Virus record (IMG/VR): IMGVR_UViG_3300045988_004821
Direction: 5' to 3' (one strand)
Length of the DNA: 64,000 nt
DNA from: a virus
Taxonomy: Duplodnaviria > Heunggongvirae > Uroviricota > Caudoviricetes
Shown piece by piece: positions 12,561 through 47,470 of the stretch. The first letter of the stretch is position 1; each line of letters begins with the position of its first letter. The notes beneath the pieces are model-generated. The model saw nothing but the letters and a program-made list of their open reading frames with translations, was not told where the DNA came from and made no database searches. Position numbers and translations under genes: made by a program.

Positions 12561-12932
12561 ATGAAAAACAGAACAAACAAAGGCCAGTTTAAAAAAGGCC
12601 AGTCTGGAAACCCATCTGGAAGACCAAAAGGCTCACGTAACAAAAGTTCACTTGTAAAAGCTCAACTGACCATTGATAATTCTGCTGAGTTTGCTGCAAA
12701 GTTGTTTGAGGCGGTTGTTACAAGGGATGCTGCTAAGCTTGCAGAGTTCGGTTTGACGACTGACGATGTAAACCTGAAGTCGATGATGGAGGCTGGTAAA
12801 ACCATCATGACTCACTCAGCAGGTGAGATGAAAGCGATTGCAGCAGACACTAAGAAGACCCCTGATAATGGTGGTCAGTCTCAGACAGATAACAAACCAA
12901 CGTTCTCTGCTGTTGCAACCCTCAAAAAATAA
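12561..12932 (+). CDS. hypothetical protein with AT-hook-like N-terminal motif (123 aa)
   Basis: N-terminus KGQSGNPSGRPKGSRNK (GRP core flanked by basic residues); SD AAGAGG upstream. Confidence 0.5.
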   Translation: MKNRTNKGQFKKGQSGNPSGRPKGSRNKSSLVKAQLTIDNSAEFAAKLFEAVVTRDAAKLAEFGLTTDDVNLKSMMEAGKTIMTHSAGEMKAIAADTKKTPDNGGQSQTDNKPTFSAVATLKK

Positions 12933-14447: not shown

Positions 14448-14476
14448 TTGACAATGTGTTTAATACCCTTTAATAT
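14448..14476 (+). promoter_or_regulatory. sigma70-type promoter (TTGACA-17-TAATAT) upstream of tRNA array
   Basis: Consensus -35, 17-bp spacer, near-consensus -10, A/T-rich upstream tract; a second TTGACA box at 14539. Confidence 0.6.
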
Positions 14477-14594
14477 GTTCTACATAGAAACGAAATGAGA
14501 GCTTTTCTAAGATACTGAAAAATATTTTAAAAAAGTTCTTGACAACCACTAAAAAATAATGTTAAAGTGGTTACATAGAGTTTGAAAAGTTTAT

Positions 14595-14671
14595 CTCTGT
14601 TTAGCTCAGCTTGGTAGAGCGTTCCGTTTGGGGCGGTAAGGCCGGAGGTTCAAGTCCTCCAACAGAGACCA
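14595..14671 (+). tRNA. tRNA-Pro (anticodon TGG)
   Basis: Cloverleaf by eye: acceptor CTCTGTT/AACAGAG, D-arm GCTC..GAGC, T-arm GGAGG-TTCAAGT-CCTCC, encoded CCA; one mismatch in anticodon stem. Confidence 0.6.
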
Positions 14672-14678
14672 AATTAAT

Positions 14679-14756
14679 GTTCCAGTAGACAAAATGGTAA
14701 AGTCACCACTCTTTCAAAGTGGATATTTGAGGGTTCAAATCCCTTCTGGAACGCCA
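14679..14756 (+). tRNA. tRNA-Glu (anticodon TTC)
   Basis: Acceptor GTTCCAG/CTGGAAC, anticodon arm CCACT-CTTTCAA-AGTGG, T-loop TTCAAAT, CCA encoded. Confidence 0.7.
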
Positions 14757-14762
14757 GTTTTG

Positions 14763-14837
14763 ACAGAAGACCAATTACAGCAAACTTAATCTACTCATCT
14801 GAAAGTTAATCGGACAAAGAAGATATTTGGTCTGGTC
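14763..14837 (+). ncRNA. stem-closed spacer element, copy a (AGACCAA..TTGGTCT arms, TTACAGCAA box)
   Basis: One of four copies with conserved ACAGAAGACC..TTACAGCAA 5' end and GGTCTGG 3' end; arm sequence covaries between copies. Confidence 0.4.
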
Positions 14838-14846
14838 ATTAAGAAT

Positions 14847-14923
14847 TGCGGGTATAGAGAAAGGGCGTCTCACATGTCTCATTAGCATGGTATCGGCAGG
14901 TTCGACTCCTGCACCCGCCTCCA
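14847..14923 (+). tRNA. tRNA with CAT anticodon (Met or Ile-lysidine), position 1:72 unpaired
   Basis: Anticodon arm CATGT-CTCATTA-GCATG, T-arm GCAGG-TTCGACT-CCTGC, CCA encoded; T1 opposite C72. Confidence 0.5.
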
Positions 14924-14928
14924 AATTT

Positions 14929-14996
14929 ACAGAAGACCGTTTACAGCAATATTTATTAAATTTTTAGCGGAAAAAATTGAAATATACGGTCTGGTA
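14929..14996 (+). ncRNA. stem-closed spacer element, copy b (AGACCGT..ACGGTCT arms)
   Basis: Same architecture as copy a with compensatory arm change CAA/TTG to CGT/ACG. Confidence 0.4.
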
Positions 14997-15007
14997 ATAC
15001 TAAACAT

Positions 15008-15084
15008 GGTTAGGAAGCACATAAGGTATGTGCGGTCGCCTGTTAAGCGAATGGCACAGGGTTCGAATCCCTGACTAACCGCCA
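15008..15084 (+). tRNA. tRNA-Asn (anticodon GTT)
   Basis: D-arm GCAC..GTGC, anticodon loop CTGTTAA, T-arm CAGGG-TTCGAAT-CCCTG, CCA encoded. Confidence 0.7.
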
Positions 15085-15093
15085 AATTTAAAT

Positions 15094-15181
15094 GTGTCGT
15101 TATCCCGTAGATGGTAGCGGTGGGGACTGTAAATCCCTTGTCATTGAGACTCGGTAGGTTCGACTCCTACACGGCACACCA
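15094..15181 (+). tRNA. tRNA-Tyr (anticodon GTA), long variable arm
   Basis: 88 nt; anticodon arm GGGGA-CTGTAAA-TCCCT; T-arm GTAGG-TTCGACT-CCTAC; CCA encoded. Confidence 0.7.
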
Positions 15182-15186
15182 ATAAA

Positions 15187-15264
15187 GGTTATGTAGTTTA
15201 ATTTGGTTAAAATACTCCCCTGTCACGGGAGATGATGAGGGTTCAAATCCCTTCGTAACCGCCA
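15187..15264 (+). tRNA. tRNA-Asp (anticodon GTC)
   Basis: Anticodon arm CTCCC-CTGTCAC-GGGAG; acceptor GGTTATG/CGTAACC; CCA encoded. Confidence 0.7.
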
Positions 15265-15292
15265 ATTTTGAGAGGGCTATTTAGCCCCTCCC

Positions 15293-15320
15293 TTAAAGGG
15301 TTCTTACGAGTATCCTTTAA
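15293..15320 (+). promoter_or_regulatory. conserved hairpin TTAAAGG-[GTTCTTACGAGTAT]-CCTTTAA
   Basis: Second copy at 18407-18430 has the same 14-nt loop (1-2 changes) and a covarying stem (TAAGG/CCTTA). Confidence 0.45.
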
Positions 15321-15325
15321 AGGAG

Positions 15326-15400
15326 CAGAAGACCAAATACAGCAAGTTACTTAAAATTTCAAGCCAATTTAATTTTGAAAAATTTAAAACTTGGTCTGGC
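15326..15400 (+). ncRNA. stem-closed spacer element, copy c (AGACCAA..TTGGTCT arms)
   Basis: Conserved 5' CAGAAGACC..ACAGCAA and 3' GGTCTGG ends. Confidence 0.4.
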
Positions 15401-15411
15401 TCAACAAATTT

Positions 15412-15545
15412 ACAGAAGACCGTTTACAGCAAAACTTAAACAATCTATTTCTCGGTAAAGAAAAGGCGAAGGTTCGATTCCTTCACTCGGCAGATGTCGA
15501 GTTGGTGTAATGGTAGCACTTAAGATGATAAACAACGGTCTGGTA
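15412..15545 (+). ncRNA. stem-closed element, copy d, containing a circularly permuted tRNA-like module (Y-RNA-like candidate)
   Basis: Outer arms AGACCGTT/AACGGTCT; inside, T-arm GAAGG-TTCGATT-CCTTC, then acceptor-like 7-bp stem ACTCGGC/GTCGAGT closed by loop AGAT, then TG and D-arm GTGT-AATGGTA-GCAC. Confidence 0.45.
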
Positions 15546-15688
15546 ATTATCTTTGTAGATAAGTTATTAAGCTTACCTGTGAGTATGCGACCACAAAGGG
15601 TGAAAGGGTAAATTCTAGATTTAAACCCAAAAAGGCACATCGCTACAGACCTTAAGCAAGTCTGGGTAGCTTATCTACAAAGATAATT
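15545..15688 (+). ncRNA. element bounded by a perfect 19-bp inverted repeat (AATTATCTTTGTAGATAAG / CTTATCTACAAAGATAATT) with 106-nt interior
   Basis: Perfect inverted repeat at 15545-15563 and 15670-15688; interior has a nested hairpin CTACAGAC..GTCTGGGTAG; abuts tRNA-Lys. Confidence 0.35.
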
Positions 15689-15692
15689 TAAT

Positions 15693-15768
15693 GGAAGTGT
15701 AGCAGAATGGTGATGCGGCAGACTTTTAATCTGACAGGCGATGGGTTCGAATCCCTCCACTTCTACCA
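15693..15768 (+). tRNA. tRNA-Lys (anticodon TTT)
   Basis: Acceptor GGAAGTG/CACTTCT, anticodon loop CTTTTAA, T-loop TTCGAAT, CCA encoded; T-stem has a bulge. Confidence 0.6.
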
Positions 15769-15772
15769 ATAT

Positions 15773-15849
15773 GGTTCAGTCGCAGATAAGGTAATGCAAG
15801 GGTCTCATAAGCCCTATGAATGTGGGTTCGATTCCCATCTGAACCTCCA
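15773..15849 (+). tRNA. tRNA with CAT anticodon (Met / Ile-lysidine / initiator-like GGG:CCC anticodon stem)
   Basis: Anticodon arm AGGGT-CTCATAA-GCCCT; acceptor GGTTCAG/CTGAACC; CCA encoded. Confidence 0.6.
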
Positions 15850-15850
15850 A

Positions 15851-15926
15851 GCTGGTATAGTTAAGAAGGTTATAACACTCCCCTGATAAGGGAACATCGG
15901 TGGTTCGATTCCACCTACCAGTACCA
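15851..15926 (+). tRNA. tRNA-Ile (anticodon GAT)
   Basis: D-arm GTTA..TAAC, anticodon loop CTGATAA, T-arm GGTGG-TTCGATT-CCACC, CCA encoded. Confidence 0.7.
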
Positions 15927-15941
15927 ATTTCAATAAAGTTG

Positions 15942-15970
15942 TTGACATTGAGATGTGACTACTTTATAGT
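15942..15970 (+). promoter_or_regulatory. sigma70-type promoter (TTGACA-17-TATAGT) inside tRNA array
   Basis: Consensus -35, 17-bp spacer, TATAGT -10, A/T-rich upstream. Confidence 0.6.
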
Positions 15971-16174
15971 AACCTTAGTTTTCGTTGCGTAGCGTCTATT
16001 TTGCAAATTTAAAATAAATGCAAACGACAATGTTTTTCTGGCAGTAGCTTGATAGGCTAAACACCAGTGAGGTCTTCCAATCCCTCATCAAAGAATTTGG
16101 CGTACTCGCCCACGGTATGATTAATAAGGTGGGCATCTTTAAGGGCTTTCTAAGAGAGTCTTTAAAGATAATTA

Positions 16175-16256
16175 CGGGGCGTATCTCAGCGGTCTTCTAA
16201 ACCGCCGTTAACCGAGTAAGTGGAGTATGCGGGTTCGAGTCCTGCCGCCTCGACCA
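16175..16256 (+). tRNA. atypical tRNA-like element (acceptor/T-arm minihelix; hairpin with TCT in a 7-nt loop where the D-arm should be; possibly degenerate tRNA-Arg)
   Basis: Acceptor CGGGGCG/CGCCTCG, T-arm GCGGG-TTCGAGT-CCTGC, CCA encoded, but no canonical D-arm and no anticodon arm at the expected position. Confidence 0.35.
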
Positions 16257-16399
16257 ATTTAGTTAGCAGATTACTTAGACGACCTTATCGGGTCTTCCTG
16301 TAGGGAGGTGGTCTGTATCTCATGTTTTCCAGAACATGTAAATAATCTGAGAAGGGGCTTTACAGTGTTGAGATAATACGGTAAGCTTCGAATTATAGT

Positions 16400-16482
16400 A
16401 TGGGACGATGTTAAGACTCTAAGGCATGAGCAACGGCTTCCAACACCGTTTCAAAGGGGTTCAACTCCTCCGTCCCATGCCA
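16400..16482 (+). tRNA. tRNA-Trp (anticodon CCA) with extended D region
   Basis: Perfect acceptor ATGGGAC/GTCCCAT, anticodon arm ACGGC-TTCCAAC-ACCGT, T-loop TTCAACT, CCA encoded; D region about 7 nt longer than canonical. Confidence 0.5.
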
Positions 16483-16495
16483 AAGTCTTATTAGG

Positions 16496-16583
16496 GGTAG
16501 GTAGCGGCTAATGGCAGCCAAACAGTCTTGAAAACTGTTGCCACTGTAGAGATACGGTGAGGGTTCGACTCCTTTACTTACCG
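16496..16583 (+). tRNA. tRNA-Ser (anticodon TGA), long variable arm; CCA not encoded
   Basis: Anticodon arm AACAGT-CTTGAAA-ACTGTT; acceptor GGTAGGT/ACTTACC; discriminator G. Confidence 0.65.
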
Positions 16584-16840
16584 CCTAATAAGATTTACAC
16601 CGTCCATGCTTGCTCGCATTTTCGGTTTATCCCTCGTGTATTGTCGTACACACTGATAAAGCACCTAGTAGGTGTCACGGAGAAGAGATAATATCAAGCT
16701 CTCCAAAGGTTCTAGTCACCGGATTAAACAAGACTATGCAAAGACCTTTTTAGGTCTTTTTAGAGGGCTTCTAAGGTTATTACAGCTTGTTGTGGAACCT
16801 TGTTGCTTAGGTTCTTAGAAGTTCTCTAAAAAGATTTAAT

Positions 16841-16918
16841 GGGAGATTGACGGTAATTGGTAAACCTACCATCCTTAGAAGTTGGTGTTTGAGGGTTCGA
16901 ATCCCTTGTCTCCCACCA
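16841..16918 (+). tRNA. tRNA with Leu anticodon TAG but short (class-I) variable region
   Basis: Acceptor GGGAGAT/GTCTCCC, Leu-like D-arm GGT-AATTGGTAA-ACC, anticodon loop CTTAGAA, discriminator A, CCA encoded; 78 nt. Confidence 0.5.
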
Positions 16919-16925
16919 AATTAAT

Positions 16926-17001
16926 GCAGGTGTAGCAAAATGGTTATGCGGCTGACTCTTAATCAGTAAGACGATGGGTTCAATTCCCTCCACCTGTACC
17001 A
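16926..17001 (+). tRNA. tRNA-Lys (anticodon CTT)
   Basis: Anticodon arm GCTGA-CTCTTAA-TCAGT; acceptor GCAGGTG/CACCTGT; CCA encoded. Confidence 0.6.
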
Positions 17002-17007
17002 AACAAT

Positions 17008-17083
17008 GGGGTCATAGTTTATATGGTTAAAATTCGAGTTTTGCAAACTTGGGAACTGAGTTCAATTCTCAGTGACTCCACCA
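17008..17083 (+). tRNA. tRNA-Ala (anticodon TGC)
   Basis: Anticodon arm CGAGT-TTTGCAA-ACTTG; T-arm CTGAG-TTCAATT-CTCAG; CCA encoded. Confidence 0.7.
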
Positions 17084-17089
17084 ATTAGT

Positions 17090-17164
17090 GCATCCATAGT
17101 TTAAACGGGAAAATTACAGTCTTCCAAACTGAGGTTGAGGGTTCGATTCCCTCTGGATGCTCCA
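17090..17164 (+). tRNA. tRNA-Gly (anticodon TCC)
   Basis: Perfect acceptor GCATCCA/TGGATGC; anticodon loop CTTCCAA; T-arm GAGGG-TTCGATT-CCCTC; CCA encoded. Confidence 0.65.
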
Positions 17165-17171
17165 AATTAAT

Positions 17172-17247
17172 GCTCCTATCGTATAATTGGCTATTACGGT
17201 TGCCTTGTAAGTAACTTATCAGGGTTCGAATCCTTGTTGGAGCACCA
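17172..17247 (+). tRNA. tRNA-Thr (anticodon TGT)
   Basis: D-stem CGTA/TACG; anticodon arm GTTGC-CTTGTAA-GTAAC; T-loop TTCGAAT; CCA encoded. Confidence 0.65.
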
Positions 17248-17344
17248 ATTTAGAGGTCAAGTGAAAGACCGCTTTGAGTCAACTGAAGACCGTAACAAAT
17301 CCCACGGAGTTGAGTTAGCGGCACAACTTCAGACCTCTTTTCAC

Positions 17345-17419
17345 ACTCGCTTAGTTTATATGGTAAAACATCACCCTTACAAGATGAAGAAGAAGGTTCA
17401 AGTCCTTTAGTGAGTACCA
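17345..17419 (+). tRNA. tRNA-Val (anticodon TAC)
   Basis: D-stem GTTT/AAAC; anticodon loop CTTACAA; T-arm GAAGG-TTCAAGT-CCTTT; CCA encoded. Confidence 0.65.
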
Positions 17420-17420
17420 T

Positions 17421-17498
17421 GTTCCAGTATCCCAATTGGTAGAGGATGCAAGCTCAAACCTTGTACTAGTGACGGTTCGAATCCGTCTTGGAACACCA
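17421..17498 (+). tRNA. tRNA with Leu anticodon CAA but short (class-I) variable region
   Basis: Leu-like D-arm TCC-CAATTGGTAGA-GGA; anticodon arm GCAAG-CTCAAAC-CTTGT; T-arm GACGG-TTCGAAT-CCGTC; discriminator A; 78 nt. Confidence 0.5.
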
Positions 17499-17503
17499 AT
17501 TTT

Positions 17504-17579
17504 GCAGGATTAGTTCAAATGGATAGAGCAACAGTCTACGAAGCTGTTAATAGGGGTTCGAATCCCTTATCCTGCGCCA
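17504..17579 (+). tRNA. tRNA-Arg (anticodon ACG)
   Basis: Perfect acceptor GCAGGAT/ATCCTGC; anticodon arm ACAGT-CTACGAA-GCTGT; CCA encoded. Confidence 0.7.
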
Positions 17580-17598
17580 ATTTAAAGAGGCTATTTAG

Positions 17599-18156
17599 AT
17601 GAGATATTTGAAGTATGCTTCATGGATTTTCTTAGCTTTGTTAGAGCCATTTGCAGCAATCTTAGCAGTTATCTTAGCACCTTTCGTAGTTCCATTCTAC
17701 AGTGAGAAGAAAGGACATCTGCCTTTCGGGTTCAGATGGATGGAAACTTATGACAACCCAATTGATGGTGATGAAGGTCACGTTAAAAGATGGGCTAATA
17801 TTAGATGGATTGGTAAACTAGGTGTCTACATGCAAAGAGTCGGATGGCTCTGGAGAAACAAAGCTTATAACTTCTCTTACCATGTATTAGGAAGAGATGT
17901 AAAAGATGTTACTAAGTGGAAAGGTAATATCAACGTAAGTTCTGACCCTGAAGATAATCAGACAGGTTATCTCCTAATGTGGAACAGTAATGCTTGGGGA
18001 TTATTCGCTTTTATCCCATCAATTAAAATCTTTGGTAAACAATTCTACTGGAGAATTTATGTTGGATGGAAGCTAAAAAGTGTTGTCCCAGAAGAAAGAG
18101 CATTCTCAAGGGAAAGAGTTATGTTGGCATTCTTTATTCACCCACTAAGAAAGTAA
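17599..18156 (+). CDS. hypothetical membrane protein encoded inside the tRNA array (185 aa)
   Basis: N-terminal hydrophobic stretch WIFLALLEPFAAILAVILAPFVVPF; flanked by tRNA genes. Confidence 0.5.
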   Translation: MRYLKYASWIFLALLEPFAAILAVILAPFVVPFYSEKKGHLPFGFRWMETYDNPIDGDEGHVKRWANIRWIGKLGVYMQRVGWLWRNKAYNFSYHVLGRDVKDVTKWKGNINVSSDPEDNQTGYLLMWNSNAWGLFAFIPSIKIFGKQFYWRIYVGWKLKSVVPEERAFSRERVMLAFFIHPLRK

Positions 18157-18164
18157 AGATTTAA

Positions 18165-18240
18165 AGGGGATTAGTTTACAAGGTTAAAACCTCGGTCTTT
18201 GAAATCGAAGAAGTTGGTTCAATTCCAACATCCCCCGCCA
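18165..18240 (+). tRNA. tRNA-Gln (anticodon TTG)
   Basis: Anticodon arm TCGGT-CTTTGAA-ATCGA; T-arm GTTGG-TTCAATT-CCAAC; CCA encoded; A1 opposite C72. Confidence 0.65.
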
Positions 18241-18242
18241 AT

Positions 18243-18321
18243 GCTCCATTACTCCAATTGGCAGAGAGGCCAGACTTAAAATCTGTGTTATGTATCGGTT
18301 CGAATCCGATATGGAGTACCA
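18243..18321 (+). tRNA. tRNA with Leu anticodon TAA, Leu-like D-arm but short variable region
   Basis: D-arm CTC-CAATTGGCAGA-GAG; anticodon loop CTTAAAA; T-arm ATCGG-TTCGAAT-CCGAT; discriminator A; 79 nt. Confidence 0.55.
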
Positions 18322-18326
18322 AATTT

Positions 18327-18402
18327 AGCGGTATAGCATAACTGGAAATGCAACAGTCTCTGAAGCTGTCCTATTAAGGTTCAAATCCTTATGCCGCTGC
18401 CA
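18327..18402 (+). tRNA. tRNA-Gln (anticodon CTG)
   Basis: D-stem GCAT/ATGC; anticodon arm ACAGT-CTCTGAA-GCTGT; T-arm TAAGG-TTCAAAT-CCTTA; CCA encoded. Confidence 0.6.
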
Positions 18403-18406
18403 CTTC

Positions 18407-18430
18407 TAAGGGTTCTTACGAGAGTCCTTA
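18407..18430 (+). promoter_or_regulatory. conserved hairpin TAAGG-[GTTCTTACGAGAGT]-CCTTA (second copy)
   Basis: Same loop as 15293-15320 with covarying stem. Confidence 0.45.
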
Positions 18431-18433
18431 AAT

Positions 18434-18509
18434 GTGGCCTTATCATAAATGGTAATGACCCATGCTGTGAACATGGTCTATACGGGTTCAAATCCCGTAG
18501 GTCACCCCA
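18434..18509 (+). tRNA. tRNA-His (anticodon GTG)
   Basis: D-stem TCAT/ATGA; perfect anticodon arm CCATG-CTGTGAA-CATGG; T-arm ACGGG-TTCAAAT-CCCGT; no encoded G-1. Confidence 0.7.
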
Positions 18510-18515
18510 ATTTAT

Positions 18516-18591
18516 AGTCCAAGTAGCTTATATGGTTAAAGCGCGTGTCTGAAAAACATGAGAAGAGGGTTCAAATCCCACTGGACTACCA
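18516..18591 (+). tRNA. tRNA-Phe (anticodon GAA)
   Basis: Anticodon arm CGTGT-CTGAAAA-ACATG; T-loop TTCAAAT; CCA encoded. Confidence 0.65.
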
Positions 18592-18607
18592 ATTTCAAAG
18601 GTGCTTA

Positions 18608-19342
18608 ATGAAAGAGATGACAGAACAAGGTAAGGAGATTTTTAATCTCTTAAAAACCGGTAAAGGGTTCTCTAACCCACTTATCACTGGTGCAGCAGTT
18701 CTCGGTGGAACCGTAGCTGCTTCTACATCACTTGTAAGCTCTATTAGTTCTGTAACAGACCCTACAATGAAGGAGAAACTTGTTGCTGCTGGACTTACAA
18801 CAGTCCTTCTAAACAGCTTTACAACAAGCCTTACAAGCACTACAGCAACTACTAAAACTCTGACAGACTACGGTCAAAAGTCTATTGATGAGTTTTCATC
18901 ACGTATGCAGGTAGCAAAGGGGTATTCCAATGTTATGGGTGCAGCAGGAGAACAAGTTGGTTGTACACCATTCAGTGGTATCATGGGTGTTGCTACAGAG
19001 TATGGTCAAAAAGCTATTGACATGATGAACAGTACACTAGATAGTGTTAATGGTGTGTTAAGTGACTTGCAAGATGCTATTGATAAGGGTCTTGATACTG
19101 TTTCTGATTTAGCTAATCAGGCTGTTAGTAAGATTAATGAGGGTATTTCAAAGATTACAGCTTATGCAGATGAAGTTGTGCAGATGATTGAAGAAGAAGC
19201 TGCCCTTATTGCAGAGTACCTTAAAACGAATATCAATGGGTTCTTAGCAGGTATCTTACCAGACTGGTTTGATGATGCCTGTAAAACTGGTGTAATTGAC
19301 ACTATTGCAACACCAGAAATGAAGAGCGCATTACAGAAATAA
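18608..19342 (+). CDS. hypothetical protein with hydrophobic and Ser/Thr-rich N-terminal region (244 aa)
   Basis: Start moved to the ATG at 18608 (SD AAGGTG upstream) because the track start at 18545 overlaps tRNA-Phe. Confidence 0.5.
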   Translation: MKEMTEQGKEIFNLLKTGKGFSNPLITGAAVLGGTVAASTSLVSSISSVTDPTMKEKLVAAGLTTVLLNSFTTSLTSTTATTKTLTDYGQKSIDEFSSRMQVAKGYSNVMGAAGEQVGCTPFSGIMGVATEYGQKAIDMMNSTLDSVNGVLSDLQDAIDKGLDTVSDLANQAVSKINEGISKITAYADEVVQMIEEEAALIAEYLKTNINGFLAGILPDWFDDACKTGVIDTIATPEMKSALQK

Positions 19343-19343
19343 T

Positions 19344-19436
19344 GGAAGATTAACCCTAAAAGGTAAGGGAGCAGTTTGCTAAACTGCCAGTAGCTGAGAA
19401 ATCGGTGTACCAGTTCAAGTCTGGTATCTTCCTCCA
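19344..19436 (+). tRNA. tRNA-Ser (anticodon GCT), long variable arm
   Basis: 93 nt; perfect anticodon arm GCAGT-TTGCTAA-ACTGC; T-arm ACCAG-TTCAAGT-CTGGT; CCA encoded. Confidence 0.7.
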
Positions 19437-19440
19437 ATTT

Positions 19441-19516
19441 GAATCCGTGACAGAAATGGCTATGTGCCTGTCTGCAAAACAGGTTTATAAGGGTTCGAGT
19501 CCCTTCGGATTCTCCA
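19441..19516 (+). tRNA. tRNA-Cys (anticodon GCA)
   Basis: Perfect acceptor GAATCCG/CGGATTC and anticodon arm CCTGT-CTGCAAA-ACAGG; CCA encoded. Confidence 0.7.
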
Positions 19517-40454: not shown

Positions 40455-42809
40455 ATGGCAGATTACAAATTGAGTGAGCTAAACTCAATCGACACAATCC
40501 GTTCAGATGACCTTCTTCATGTCAGAGTTAAAAAGAGACCTGAAATGCTGGGTGATGAAGACCGTCGAATGACCTATCAAGATTTCTTAGCATCTTTTAA
40601 GCTTGAAAGATTTGTTCAGATTGCTGGTAGCACTATGACGGGTGACTTAGGAATTGTTAAGCTACTTTACGGTGGCAAGGCTGTATTCGACCCCACAGGC
40701 TCTTCTGAGATTACTGTTGGTGATGTTTTAAAGACTTTTAAAATCAACGCAAACGGCCTTAAACTAACTATTGCAGACGCTTCAAGGTCGGCAACTGTTT
40801 ATCATACTTTGAATAAGCCAAGCCCTAATGAACTTGGGATGAGAACTAATGAAGAGAATGACGCAAGGTATGCAAGACTAGCCGTGAATAATACCTTTAG
40901 AGGTACTCAAGCTATCCTCTCTGACAATGAAGCGCTCATTATTAAAAATATCACTCAAGGTGCTCCACTCTATCTTCGTGGTCAAGATGCAGATGGTACT
41001 AACAGATGGTATCTAGGTAATGATAATAGGGGTACAAATAATCTTGTATTGAAGAATGTAAAGTCTGACGTTTCAATTGCTATTTTAGAGAATTTGGTGA
41101 CAGTCAACAGAACTCTTCAAATTGCTGGCCAAGTTCAGCCTTCAAGTTTTGCTAACTTAGATGCTAGGTATTTTACCCAGACAGCAGCTAATCAGAGATT
41201 TGCGCAGTTAGCTGGTAATAACACTTTTACTGGTACTAACACTTTCTCTAATTTTGTTGCTAAGAAGAATGCTGAAGCCATCACTCTGCAAAATGTGGAC
41301 ACTGCTCCCTCTTTATATATCCGAGCAAGAAAGTCAGATGGGAATTATAAGTGGTACATTGGTAATGACGGTGATGAGAACATTTTAAAAATCTATAACT
41401 ATCTAACAAAAACACAAGTCTCACTAGGTAACACTATTGCCATGAGCAAAACAGTTCAAATTGATGGTCAAGTACAACCTTCTGATTGGACTAACATTGA
41501 TTCTAGATATATTCCGGCAGCCAATTTGAGTAATCTCCCTAAACTTAATGTGTCTAATACTTTTACAAATGTGCAAACTATTGTATCTAACAACGAGGGT
41601 TTGGTATTAAGGAACTTGACACAGGGGCAGCCACTATATATCCGTGGTGTTGATACTGAGAATGTTTCTAGATGGTGGTTAGGTGTAGGTGGTCCAAACT
41701 CTAATGTGGTAACACTTAACAACACCTATTCTGACACTAAAATCTCACTTGGTGGCTCATCAGTAATGACTAATAAGAGCTTAGCTATTACTGGTCAAGT
41801 ACAACCTTCTGACTTCTCTAACTTAGATGCTAGATACTATACCCAAGCTGCCGCAAACGCAAGATATATGCTTGCAAGCATCACTGGTTCGGCTTCTGAA
41901 GCAGATGGTGGTGATGGTGTTGCATGGGATGCAAAAACAGGTCTTTATAAGGTTACTAACACCACTGGACAGTCTTCTTCACTTGTATATAACATGTTTT
42001 TAGGGACTAGTTCTACACCATCTGCACAATTAAAGTTTTCGTTTAAAAATGGTGGGATGTGGTATAGAACATCAAGAGATGCCTATGGCTTCGAAGTTAA
42101 TTGGTCTAAAGTTTACACGGAAGCACAAAAACCAACCCCTTCAGAGATTGGTGCATACACTAAAGCTGAAACTGACCAGAAAATTGCAACAGCAATTAGT
42201 GACTCTACAGACCTTAACAAAATCTATCCAGTTGGTATTGTAACGTGGTTTAACAGTAATGTTAACCCTAATACAGCACTCCCTGGTCTAACTTGGACGT
42301 ACCTGAATAATGGTGTTGGTAGAACTATCAGAATCGCAGCAGCAAACGGTTCAGATGTTGCTACAACTGGTGGTTCAGATTCTGTGACATTAGCTGTTGG
42401 TAACTTACCATCACACACTCACAGTTTCTCTGCTACCACTTCATCTTTTGATTATGGTACGAAGAACACTAACAGTACTGGTGCACATACCCATTCAGTT
42501 AGTGGTACTGCTGCATCTGCTGGGCAACACGCACACAGAATTTCACAGGGTGACAACGCTAACGTTTCATCAGGTAGAGTCGCATCTTCAAACTCTGCTC
42601 AGACCCATGTTGGTTGGACTGAAAATGATGGTGTTCACACCCACTCAGTTAGTGGTACTGCTGCATCTGCTGGTGGACATGCTCACTCTGTAGGTATTGG
42701 TGCTCATAGCCACACAGTTAGTGGTAACACTGGTGGTACAGGTTCTGGTTCAGCATTTAGTGTTACTAACCAGTTCTACAAGTTAATGGCTTGGGTAAGA
42801 ACTGCTTAA
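40455..42809 (+). CDS. long tail fibre protein with C-terminal His-box repeats (784 aa)
   Basis: Internal repeated LxIxGQVQPSDxxNxDxRY segments; C-terminal HTHS/AHSH repeats; ends FYKLMAWVRTA (paralogous to SFVLYVWQRTA). Confidence 0.7.
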   Translation: MADYKLSELNSIDTIRSDDLLHVRVKKRPEMLGDEDRRMTYQDFLASFKLERFVQIAGSTMTGDLGIVKLLYGGKAVFDPTGSSEITVGDVLKTFKINANGLKLTIADASRSATVYHTLNKPSPNELGMRTNEENDARYARLAVNNTFRGTQAILSDNEALIIKNITQGAPLYLRGQDADGTNRWYLGNDNRGTNNLVLKNVKSDVSIAILENLVTVNRTLQIAGQVQPSSFANLDARYFTQTAANQRFAQLAGNNTFTGTNTFSNFVAKKNAEAITLQNVDTAPSLYIRARKSDGNYKWYIGNDGDENILKIYNYLTKTQVSLGNTIAMSKTVQIDGQVQPSDWTNIDSRYIPAANLSNLPKLNVSNTFTNVQTIVSNNEGLVLRNLTQGQPLYIRGVDTENVSRWWLGVGGPNSNVVTLNNTYSDTKISLGGSSVMTNKSLAITGQVQPSDFSNLDARYYTQAAANARYMLASITGSASEADGGDGVAWDAKTGLYKVTNTTGQSSSLVYNMFLGTSSTPSAQLKFSFKNGGMWYRTSRDAYGFEVNWSKVYTEAQKPTPSEIGAYTKAETDQKIATAISDSTDLNKIYPVGIVTWFNSNVNPNTALPGLTWTYLNNGVGRTIRIAAANGSDVATTGGSDSVTLAVGNLPSHTHSFSATTSSFDYGTKNTNSTGAHTHSVSGTAASAGQHAHRISQGDNANVSSGRVASSNSAQTHVGWTENDGVHTHSVSGTAASAGGHAHSVGIGAHSHTVSGNTGGTGSGSAFSVTNQFYKLMAWVRTA

Positions 42810-47089: not shown

Positions 47090-47470
47090 CTGCCATCCTT
47101 CCATACCTTACCTTACCACACCTAACCATACCTAACCAAACTACACCATACAATACCTTATTAAAAGACCCTCTTAAAGACCTTTTAAAAAGGTAAGTCT
47201 CATTTTAATGTAGCTGAGACTAACTACCCATACCTCACCCTACCAGACCCTACCAGACCAGACCTTACCCTACCAGACCCTACCGAACATCACTTAAAAA
47301 CCCTCTTAGAAGACTCTTAAGTGATGTAATCGAATTTTAATGTAGCTCCGATTAACTACCCATACCTCACCTCACCCAACCATACCATGCCTTGCCAGAC
47401 CGCACCTTACCTCATTAAAAGACCCTCTTAAAAGACCTTTTAAAAAGGAGCCTCCGAAGAGGCTACCTAG
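47090..47470. repeat. complex repeat region R1: ACC-rich degenerate short tandem repeats plus conserved hairpin modules
   Basis: Paralogous to 48595-48880; contains modules TTAAAAGACCCTCTTAAAGACCTTTTAAAAAGG, hairpin AGTCTCA..TGAGACT and hairpin CATCACTTAA..TTAAGTGATG. Confidence 0.65.
47442..47464 (-). terminator. rho-independent terminator on minus strand (GGAGCCTC-TTCG-GAGGCTCC + U-run)
   Basis: Plus strand shows AAAAA then GAGCCTCCGAAGAGGCT just downstream of the 47476 gene end. Confidence 0.6.

Follow-up and report, generated by a model that had tools for sequence, protein, structure and literature searches.

In a 64,000-nt stretch of phage DNA (IMG/VR virus record IMGVR_UViG_3300045988_004821; the window, by which we mean this whole stretch), four short elements, a to d, lie inside a tRNA array directly downstream of an open reading frame (ORF) for a 471-amino-acid (aa) protein. 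The four elements are probably genes for Y RNA-like non-coding RNAs that partner this protein, which is itself Ro60-like. Specifically, i) the four copies share one structure with paired ends; ii) that structure is kept by covariation among related phages; iii) the upstream protein has a predicted Ro60 fold; and iv) gene and RNA are linked across highly divergent phages. The window is from a Felixounavirus (Felix O1-like phage): the 1.6 kb around the elements is 99% identical to Felixounavirus phages of Escherichia and Salmonella (wV8, O157 typing phages), and matches 304 phage records at identities of 80% and up.

The 64 kb contain four occurrences of the 20-nt pattern CAGAAGACCRWWTACAGCAA, at 14764, 14930, 15326, and 15413, always on the + strand, where shuffles expect 0.04 occurrences. 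For each of them, an exact complement to its own AGACCNN arm comes 44-110 nt farther on, set within an invariant GGTCTGG. A sequence-only reading of this DNA had described four stem-closed spacer elements here, and much of that description is borne out: there are four copies at those places; the arms AGACCAA/TTGGTCT (a and c) and AGACCGT/ACGGTCT (b and d) pair perfectly over 7 bp; every copy contains GGTCTGG; and c and d are tandem, 7 nt apart. The 5′ box TTACAGCAA, said to be invariant, is not so, copy c reading ATACAGCAA and the invariant part being TACAGCAA. The inner stem had been correctly seen, but a second, outer 4-bp stem with paired differences between copies had been overlooked; it is UGAC/GUCA in a, UUAC/GUAA in b and d, and GAGC/GCUC in c, and is paired in every copy. 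The common architecture is this outer stem, a fixed internal loop (AGA on the 5′ side, G on the 3′ side), the 7-bp inner stem, an unpaired UACAGCAA box, and a variable interior, and the true outer limits of the four-element set are 14761-15546. Single-sequence folding energies of a to d are unremarkable, only modestly better than those of shuffles (z -1.7 to -2.9), and the case for structure therefore rests on covariation rather than on energy.

The earlier description was incomplete for copy d, where it had not noticed a tRNA-like domain in the interior. Only d has this domain, in which a variable (V) arm, a T arm, a closed acceptor-like stem (AS), and a D arm succeed one another and the T and D loops are of tRNA type; a, b, and c lack it, resembling d with the T/AS/D core deleted and keeping the same UACAGCAA box. 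No anticodon arm is present in d, the closing stem taking its place, and within the acceptor-like hairpin the 3′-acceptor strand precedes the 5′-acceptor strand. Neither ARAGORN nor the Rfam tRNA model calls a tRNA on d, and the tRNA model scores only its T arm (14.9 bits). Such an order, with the 3′ half (T arm and 3′ acceptor strand) ahead of the 5′ half (5′ acceptor strand and D arm), is found in the permuted tRNA genes of some algae, and one GenBank record has a 129-nt "tRNA-Thr-GGT" at this very site; d might on these grounds be a tRNA gene in permuted or split form that yields a decoding tRNA after rearrangement, with a to c as its decayed copies. We regard this as very improbable: d has no anticodon stem-loop and instead has a closing stem with the family signature described below, its acceptor end is closed by AGAU, ARAGORN and the tRNA model are silent, and we know of no bacterial circularization route for such RNAs. 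As for the annotated tRNA-Thr-GGT (phage ASO1B record, L002 1458-1586, about window 15364-15492; tRNAscan-SE), we reject it because it joins the 3′ part of c to d up to the T arm without acceptor pairing; it is a misannotation caused by the tRNA-like core of d.

Features of the Ro60-like gene and Y RNA candidate locus in the window (R1 is the covariance model described in the text; paired arms are separated by a slash)
Feature	Position	Strand	Details
Ro60-like protein gene, 471 aa	13014-14429	+	Helical ring and vWA domain, from predicted structure; proposed RNA partner
Two tandem sigma-70-like promoters	14448-14476, 14539-14568	+	Ahead of tRNA-Pro; consensus scan
tRNA array, 25 genes	14595-19516	+	Starts 166 nt past the end of the 471-aa ORF
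Element a, short (YrlB-like) Y RNA candidate	14761-14838	+	R1 36.0 bits, E 3e-7; apical hairpin within
Element a, outer stem	14761-14764/14835-14838
Element a, internal loop	14765-14767, 14834		AGA, G
Element a, inner stem	14768-14774/14827-14833
Element a, box	14776-14783		TACAGCAA
Element b, short Y RNA candidate	14927-14997	+	R1 45.7 bits; apex a U-run/GCGG/A-run hairpin
Element b, outer stem	14927-14930/14994-14997
Element b, inner stem	14934-14940/14986-14992
Element b, box	14942-14949
Element c, short Y RNA candidate	15323-15402	+	R1 27.8 bits, E 2e-5, in the filters-off search only
Element c, outer stem	15323-15326/15399-15402
Element c, inner stem	15330-15336/15391-15397
Element c, box	15338-15345
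Element d, YrlA-type Y RNA candidate with tRNA-like domain	15410-15546	+	R1 106.5 bits
Element d, outer stem	15410-15413/15543-15546
Element d, inner stem	15417-15424/15534-15541
Element d, box	15425-15432
Element d, variable-arm hairpin	15444-15466	+	Reading and folding of the interior
Element d, T arm	15468-15484	+	GAAGG-UUCGAUU-CCUUC, perfect
Element d, closed acceptor-like hairpin	15485-15502	+	ACUCGGC-AGAU-GUCGAGU, 7 bp, loop AGAU
Element d, D arm	15505-15519	+	GUGU-AAUGGUA-GCAC; UG linker before it
147-nt structured RNA	15546-15692	+	23-bp closing stem; minimum free energy -47 kcal/mol, z -5.7

Relatives were compared at several distances: a close set of 17 Ounavirinae loci (Felixounavirus, Suspvirus, and Mooglevirus), and two distant sets comprising contigs whose proteins are 51-63% identical to the 471-aa protein and 80 IMG/VR loci down to 39% identity. 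All four elements are syntenic in 17/17 Ounavirinae loci, with every 7-bp inner stem intact. The outer stem of b changes from UUAC/GUAA to UUGC/GCAA in L002, L005, L007, L008, L012, L013, L016, and L083; the acceptor-like stem of d is ACUCGGC/GUCGAGU in Felix-type loci, ACACGU/GCGUGU with a UACG loop in the SUSP-type L012 and L013 (Suspvirus), and ACCCUUC/GAAGGGU in the Michonne-type L014 and L015 (Mooglevirus), being completely rewritten but still paired in both of the latter groups; and in some Ounavirinae the interiors of a and b are unrelated replacement sequences that still form a U-run/A-run hairpin. Farther out, the phages with 51-63% identical proteins carry 3-5 elements each in the tRNA array 3′ of the gene, two or three per phage with a T/AS/D core, and their inner stems (AGUAUCU, AGACUCU, AGUGUCU, GAAGAU, AGAAGCU, GUAGUU, AGAAGGU) each have a matching 3′ arm. 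From the paired arm differences the sequence-only reading had argued for selection on a folded nucleic acid, naming broken pairing in homologs as an outcome that would speak against it; the pairing is intact in the 17 Ounavirinae loci and in the farther phages despite changed arms, which supports the argument.

The same conclusion can be put in numbers. When 17 divergent tRNA-like elements were crudely aligned with MAFFT, RNAalifold recovered the closing, T, and AS helices, with double changes at 16 of 18 pairs. A covariance model, R1, comprising these helices and the D stem was built from that alignment; searched against 73 sequences (688 kb, both strands) it gave 157 matches, 157/157 on the strand of the gene, and with filters off it recovers 4/4 window copies. 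Pairing statistics were computed on the 57 R1 matches at E<=1e-3 as aligned by the model: 94.7% of cells are paired, compared with 61.5% in shuffles and 36-43% with slid partners; double changes occur at 20 of 22 pairs, in 280 cells, and none of 500 shuffles reaches the observed value; the closing helix is 97.4% paired with double changes at 6/7 pairs, and the T, AS, and D helices are 98%, 88%, and 90% paired, likewise with double changes. These 57-sequence figures are upper bounds because the sequences are model-fitted and related, but the unfitted MAFFT result agrees in direction.

Covariation of this kind, and the strand on which it is found, also bear on whether the elements act as DNA. 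Their terminal inverted repeats look like those of miniature inverted-repeat transposable elements, HNH endonuclease genes lie in this tRNA region of wV8, and a 76-aa minus-strand ORF (15410-15640; wV8 gp048, hypothetical) overlaps c, d, and the 147-nt RNA, so that the copies might be transposable repeats, homing-endonuclease targets, or part of a minus-strand protein gene. We find any such DNA-level explanation scarcely credible: the compensatory arm changes include G-U pairs, workable only in RNA and on one strand; the orientation bias is absolute (157/157 for the model, and 85 vs 2 in the rule-based scan below); the positions are syntenic, not scattered; and the gp048 ORF is not conserved in relatives, nor is any ORF conserved across the elements. 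wV8 gp048 is probably a spurious gene call.

The family has a signature of its own, consisting of AG...CUG stem ends and a UNCAGCAA box. In the model alignment the inner stem has A-U as its first pair in 49/56 and G-C as its second in 55/56, and an unpaired G follows the 3′ arm in 54/56, while the other five inner-stem pairs are free in sequence and keep their pairing; the box reads N-U-W-C-A-G-C-A-A and is unpaired, with U, C, G, C, and A close to invariant. GGTCTGG and TTACAGCAA are thus the local form of a wider CUG / UNCAGCAA signature. Among 65 distant loci (39-46% protein identity), R1 finds 61 full-length matches at E<=0.05, in 38/65 loci; 51/61 are <=600 nt from the gene, compared with 16% expected by position (P about 1e-30, indicative only, as near-duplicate loci are among the 65), and all 61 share the gene's strand, 25 lying upstream and 36 downstream of it. 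A model-free, rule-based scan for the box with a 6-8-bp stem closed as AG...CU-G gives, in the distant loci, 85 + strand matches and 2 - strand matches; in the window it finds the four elements and two chance matches on the + strand, and none on the - strand. One of the two (17643-17851, +) is a false positive inside a 185-aa ORF, and the other (42501-42662, +) was counted as chance; a TACAGCAA at 18841 is within an ORF and not an element. A looser scan allowing any 7-bp stem and G-U pairs closed 47% of boxes on the + strand vs 25% on the - strand, and was dropped for its high background.

In the window the elements sit in tRNA-sized slots, a between tRNA-Glu and tRNA-Met and b between tRNA-Met and tRNA-Asn, with c and d located after tRNA-Asp; and a stem/internal loop/stem is the classical shape of a phage RNase III site, as in T7. 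The elements might accordingly be cis-acting parts of the tRNA precursor (for example insulators that keep neighboring tRNAs from misfolding, or sites where RNase III or RNase E enters) with no life after cleavage, the more so as accumulation of the candidate RNAs is our inference. Most tRNAs of the array, however, are spaced 2-10 nt apart and do without any such element; a processing site needs neither a conserved unpaired UNCAGCAA box nor a full tRNA-like T/AS/D core held by covariation; and in many distant phages (for example L024, L026, L028, L038, and L073) the elements flank the Ro60-like gene with no adjacent tRNA gene at all. Because of this last point we conclude that the elements travel with the gene and not with tRNA arrays, and we consider processing hairpins an unlikely explanation. 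The folded nucleic acid of the sequence-only reading stands, but its spacers are more probably a family of small RNA genes tied to a Ro60-like gene.

Some of the distant loci have features worth recording for themselves. L018 and L019, from KVP40-like Vibrio phages (245 kb), encode a DUF2828 protein of 46% identity and have no Y-like element <=4 kb away by the model; either their RNA has diverged past the model or it is encoded elsewhere. Phage-encoded transfer-messenger RNA (tmRNA) is found no more than a few kb from the DUF2828 gene in L050 (1806-2210), L066 (7710-8199), and L075 (6760-7250), placing another tRNA-mimic RNA in the neighborhood. On L086 (9393-9440 and 998-3566), a 143-kb phage contig, the Ro60-like gene is accompanied by five tandem Y-like RNAs and flanked by genes for phosphoribosyl pyrophosphate synthetase, NAPRTase (NAD salvage), and an IS605 OrfB/TnpB-like protein.

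The upstream protein matches DUF2828 and DUF7788 in Pfam, and 2,816 proteins were recovered by homology at E<=1e-5, both small and jumbo phages being among their sources. An AlphaFold (AF2) model made from a single sequence was poor (predicted local distance difference test, pLDDT, 44) and was remade from an 88-sequence alignment, giving a pLDDT of 91.6 and a predicted template modeling (TM) score of 0.90. In a Foldseek search of the PDB with this model the top 11 hits are all Ro60/TROVE structures, including Thermus phage phiLo Ro60, Xenopus and human Ro60, and Deinococcus Rsr, at E about 2e-8 and TM 0.52-0.66 over the full length (513-561 aligned columns); the next tier consists of isolated vWA domains only. 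The model has the helical-repeat ring followed by a vWA domain with a MIDAS (metal ion-dependent adhesion site), the arrangement expected of a Ro60, and the MIDAS motif DxSxS (D279/S281/S283) is invariant in the protein family.

Phage tRNA arrays are thought to counter tRNA-cleaving defenses, and d has, besides its 7-bp acceptor-like stem, the T and D arms of a tRNA elbow; the elements could therefore be free-standing mimics or decoys for host tRNA-targeting nucleases or tRNA enzymes, acting independently of the Ro60-like protein. Yet a tRNA-like part is missing from 3/4 copies, what all four share is the basal stem and box rather than the tRNA mimic, and the tight same-strand linkage to DUF2828 over 39-99% protein identity would go unexplained if the protein were irrelevant. 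We give free-standing decoys little weight, and no rival considered here accounts at once for the absolute strand bias, covariation of RNA type, a conserved box left unpaired, and the gene linkage.

If the elements are Y RNA-like partners of the protein, their transcription, processing, protein binding, and function might run as follows. Elements a to d and the tRNAs would share a single precursor transcript begun at the 14448 and 14539 promoters, for which Deinococcus Yrn2-tRNAAsp-Yrn1 is a precedent. These predicted sites (TTGACA-17-TAATAT and TTGACA-18-TAAAGT, consensus matches only, the next such site being at 15942) probably drive the tRNA and Y RNA precursor. A terminator scan found no intrinsic terminator (GC-rich hairpin and U tract) on the + strand at a to d, where the sequences after the 3′ arms are GGUCAUUAAG, GGUAAUACUA, GGCUCAACAA, and GGUAAUUAUC. 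RNase P and 3′ trimming of the flanking tRNAs would free a to d, and the outer stem would shield their ends. The basal module (4-bp stem, AGA/G loop, 7-8-bp stem with A-G start, C-U end, and unpaired G, and UUAC-AGCAA box), that is, the stems, the loop, and UACAGCAA, is the proposed binding site for the Ro60-like ring, and the apical module would be an exchangeable "effector" end: a U-rich/A-rich hairpin in a to c (YrlB-like), and in d a circularly permuted tRNA mimic (YrlA-like) that would recruit or block tRNA-recognizing enzymes or PNPase. The acceptor-like stem of d, 7 bp and then A, may be cut by RNase P and receive CCA, like M. smegmatis YrlA. By analogy with Ro60 and Y RNA, the RNA would gate the protein ring or tether host factors (PNPase, tRNA-handling enzymes), apical recruitment being modeled on the Ro60-Y RNA-PNPase machine and the phiLo complex. 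Such a particle may help the phage against host defense, plausibly in counter-defense: gp130, the ortholog in the Felixounavirus Bas63, is reported to have a Ro60-like structure and to counter the Ppl defense (PMC11482910).

Immediately beyond d lies the 147-nt structured RNA of the table, which has no Rfam match. Its inner hairpin, AGAC-CUUAAGCAA-GUCU, has the loop CCUUAAGCAA, which resembles the UACAGCAA box; its long stem is kept with different sequences in L083 and L085, and its homolog in L084 is closed by a Y-like stem with a UUCAGCAU box. This RNA is outside the four-copy family as defined, and may be either a related cargo RNA or a fifth, differently packaged member.

Several other features of the region were noted. 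Between tRNA-Asp and element c (15265-15322, +) are two adjacent hairpins, GAGAGGGCU...AGCCCCUCCC and UUAAAGG...CCUUUAA, that have no U tract after them and are thus not typical terminators; the first is altered in sequence in L083 with its pairing kept. Directly upstream of the Ro60-like gene a 123-aa DUF5681 ORF (12561-12932, +) forms a gene pair that recurs in L083-L085 (53-63% identity), and the two may be one module. At 16175-16253 (+) the Rfam tRNA model scores 31.7 bits, just over gathering, and ARAGORN makes no call; this may be a decayed tRNA or another tRNA-like RNA, and a tRNA-OTHER pseudogene is annotated further along in wV8. GGTCTGG occurs 18 times in the whole window vs 4.8 expected, and five copies within 160 nt at 47243-47401 (-) are probably a coding repeat unrelated to the elements.

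Taking these observations further, we can imagine, as a tentative possibility, that DUF2828/DUF7788 proteins are a large unrecognized phage branch of Ro60 with a Y RNA family of its own, marked by the A-G...C-U-G stem and UNCAGCAA, in which multi-copy sets with interchangeable apical "cargo" (hairpins, tRNA mimics, perhaps the 147-nt RNA) are kept in tRNA operons and form a programmable ribonucleoprotein that opposes defenses such as Ppl or hijacks RNA-decay enzymes. From bacteria to humans, Ro60/Y RNA particles have been conserved, and human Ro60 is an autoantigen in lupus and Sjögren's; the role of the particles in bacteria and phages is poorly understood. If our reading is right, the Ro60/Y RNA system spans far more phages than those annotated with TROVE, and tractable E. 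coli and Salmonella phages (Felix O1, wV8, Bas63) become experimental models. The Bas63 authors guessed that some "tRNA genes" beside gp130 might be Y RNAs (PMC11482910); that published guess, next to an anti-Ppl gene, would gain RNA candidates with coordinates. Among the papers covered by our literature searches, none was found on Y RNAs of DUF2828-type proteins or in Felixounavirus, the Bas63 preprint going no further than its guess. Public annotations would also be corrected, a spurious tRNA-Thr and a hypothetical protein currently standing on these RNAs.

A number of results weigh against identifying the elements and protein as a Ro60/Y RNA system: i) Pfam TROVE (PF05731) and vWA_Ro60 (PF25045) do not match the 471-aa ORF, phmmer and an 88-homolog profile find no similar sequence and no Ro60 among PDB sequences, and BLASTP finds no similarity to the Ro60 of mycobacteriophage Bxz1 (gp220), so that the protein is tied to Ro60 by its predicted fold alone and not by sequence; ii) the bacterial Ro-binding motif, GNCGAAN0-1G/CGAA, is missing from the window copies, which read ACAGAAGACC and share only GAAG with it; iii) the YrlA model RF02553 (gathering 69 bits) has no match in the window at gathering, nor at E<=10 on 2.2 kb or on a 161-nt query holding element d; iv) in the converse search, the match of R1 to the genuine YrlA of Bxz1 covers model positions 36-128, the tRNA-like part only, and leaves the basal module unmatched; v) 27/65 distant loci, the KVP40-like Vibrio L018 and L019 included, have no match at E<=0.05; vi) the 57-sequence alignment is fitted to the model, many of its loci are related, and it holds a few tRNA cross-hits; and vii) we infer expression, processing, and protein binding of the candidate RNAs. 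Rfam scans at gathering and at E<=10 assign no family to any of a to d. Weak matches of a, b, and d to the Dictyostelium class I RNA (13-21 bits, below threshold) were dismissed, and self-cleaving ribozymes, K-turns, and bulge-helix-bulge splice motifs were discarded as candidates, the sequence having no defining core such as CUGAUGA...GAAA, tandem G.A pairs, or a 3-4-3 bulge-helix-bulge, and no tool output favoring any of them.

Stable small structured RNAs among phage tRNA genes have a precedent in T4 species 1 and 2 (rnaC and rnaD), presumably cut from the same precursor as the tRNAs; the T4 RNAs are not known to have a Ro60-like partner or a shared motif. Ro60 with Y RNAs is known in bacteria and in a few phages, namely mycobacteriophages, CcrColossus, Bacillus phage G, and phiLo. 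Normally a locus encodes several Y RNAs, of which one is tRNA-like. In Deinococcus, Yrn2-tRNAAsp-Yrn1 is one precursor and Yrn2 depends on Rsr; Thermus phage phiLo Ro60 binds two phage Y-like RNAs and the host PNPase; and M. smegmatis YrlA is cut by RNase P and receives CCA. Y RNAs in general have ends paired in a long interrupted stem that bears the Ro60 site, and 4/4 copies here have their ends paired in an interrupted stem. The criterion of Chen et al. (2014) asks further for a same-strand Ro60 ortholog <=4 kb away; elements a to d share the strand of the Ro60-fold ORF and are 332-1117 nt downstream of it, the protein being Ro60-like by fold only.

YrlA, a tRNA-mimicking Y RNA bound by bacterial Ro60/Rsr (PMC4201824; crystal structure 6CU1; Rfam RF02553), has in S. 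Typhimurium the order V-T-AS-D with a 2-nt AS-D linker and a closed acceptor loop (PMC4201824; bioRxiv 10.1101/312249). Element d resembles it in three respects: i) V arm, T arm, closed acceptor-like hairpin, 2-nt linker, and D arm follow in the same order; ii) the 5′ and 3′ ends pair as stem/internal loop/stem, with YUAY after the upper stem; and iii) the gene stands beside that for a Ro60-fold protein, on the same strand, with shorter Y RNAs alongside. The YUAY, which opens the V region in YrlA, is UUAC in a, b, and d and AUAC in c, and in the family alignment U19 is kept in 54/57 and C21 in 55/57. Element d differs from YrlA in that GNCGAAN0-1G/CGAA is replaced by the A-G...C-U-G stem end and UNCAGCAA signature; the internal loop is 3/1 nt vs about 8/5; the partner is DUF2828/DUF7788 and not TROVE/vWA_Ro60; and the genes are interleaved with tRNAs in 4-6 copies per phage. 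Animal RNAs have GGUCCGA as the Ro-binding sequence where bacterial and phage RNAs have GNCGAAN0-1G / CGAA; Felix-type copies have AGAAG where CGAAG stands, and family-wide only the A-G of the first two stem pairs is kept. The short elements a to c are likewise comparable to YrlB/Yrn2 of Salmonella, Mycobacterium, and Deinococcus and to phiLo Yrl1/Yrl2, being short and terminally paired with an internal loop and apical hairpin, and encoded beside a tRNA-like Y RNA and a Ro60-type gene, but those RNAs have CGAA where a to c have the UACAGCAA box. The protein has the predicted full-length fold of Ro60/Rsr (phiLo 9KOP/9L5Y, Bxz1 gp220), helical ring and vWA MIDAS, but is about 60-80 residues shorter and without detectable sequence similarity.

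The Bxz1 locus, where gp220 matches Pfam TROVE and vWA_Ro60, served as a control. Searched against the 7 kb around gp220, R1 gives a single match, intergenic, just upstream of the gene and on the same strand, which is the genuine YrlA; RF02553 scores 32.5 bits (E 4.5e-5) at the same spot. The Bxz1 RNAs consist of a lower stem, a loop with GGCCGAGAG or GGCCGAAGG, an upper stem, and then GGUUAC (YrlA) or GGUUAU (YrlB), and the window elements follow this layout on a smaller scale: outer stem, AGA(AG) loop, inner stem, UUAC. Because of this shared architecture, the fold of the protein, and the synteny of gene and RNA, and despite the failed CGAA, RF02553, and TROVE tests, we consider elements a to d and their upstream gene a probable variant of the Ro60/Y RNA system.

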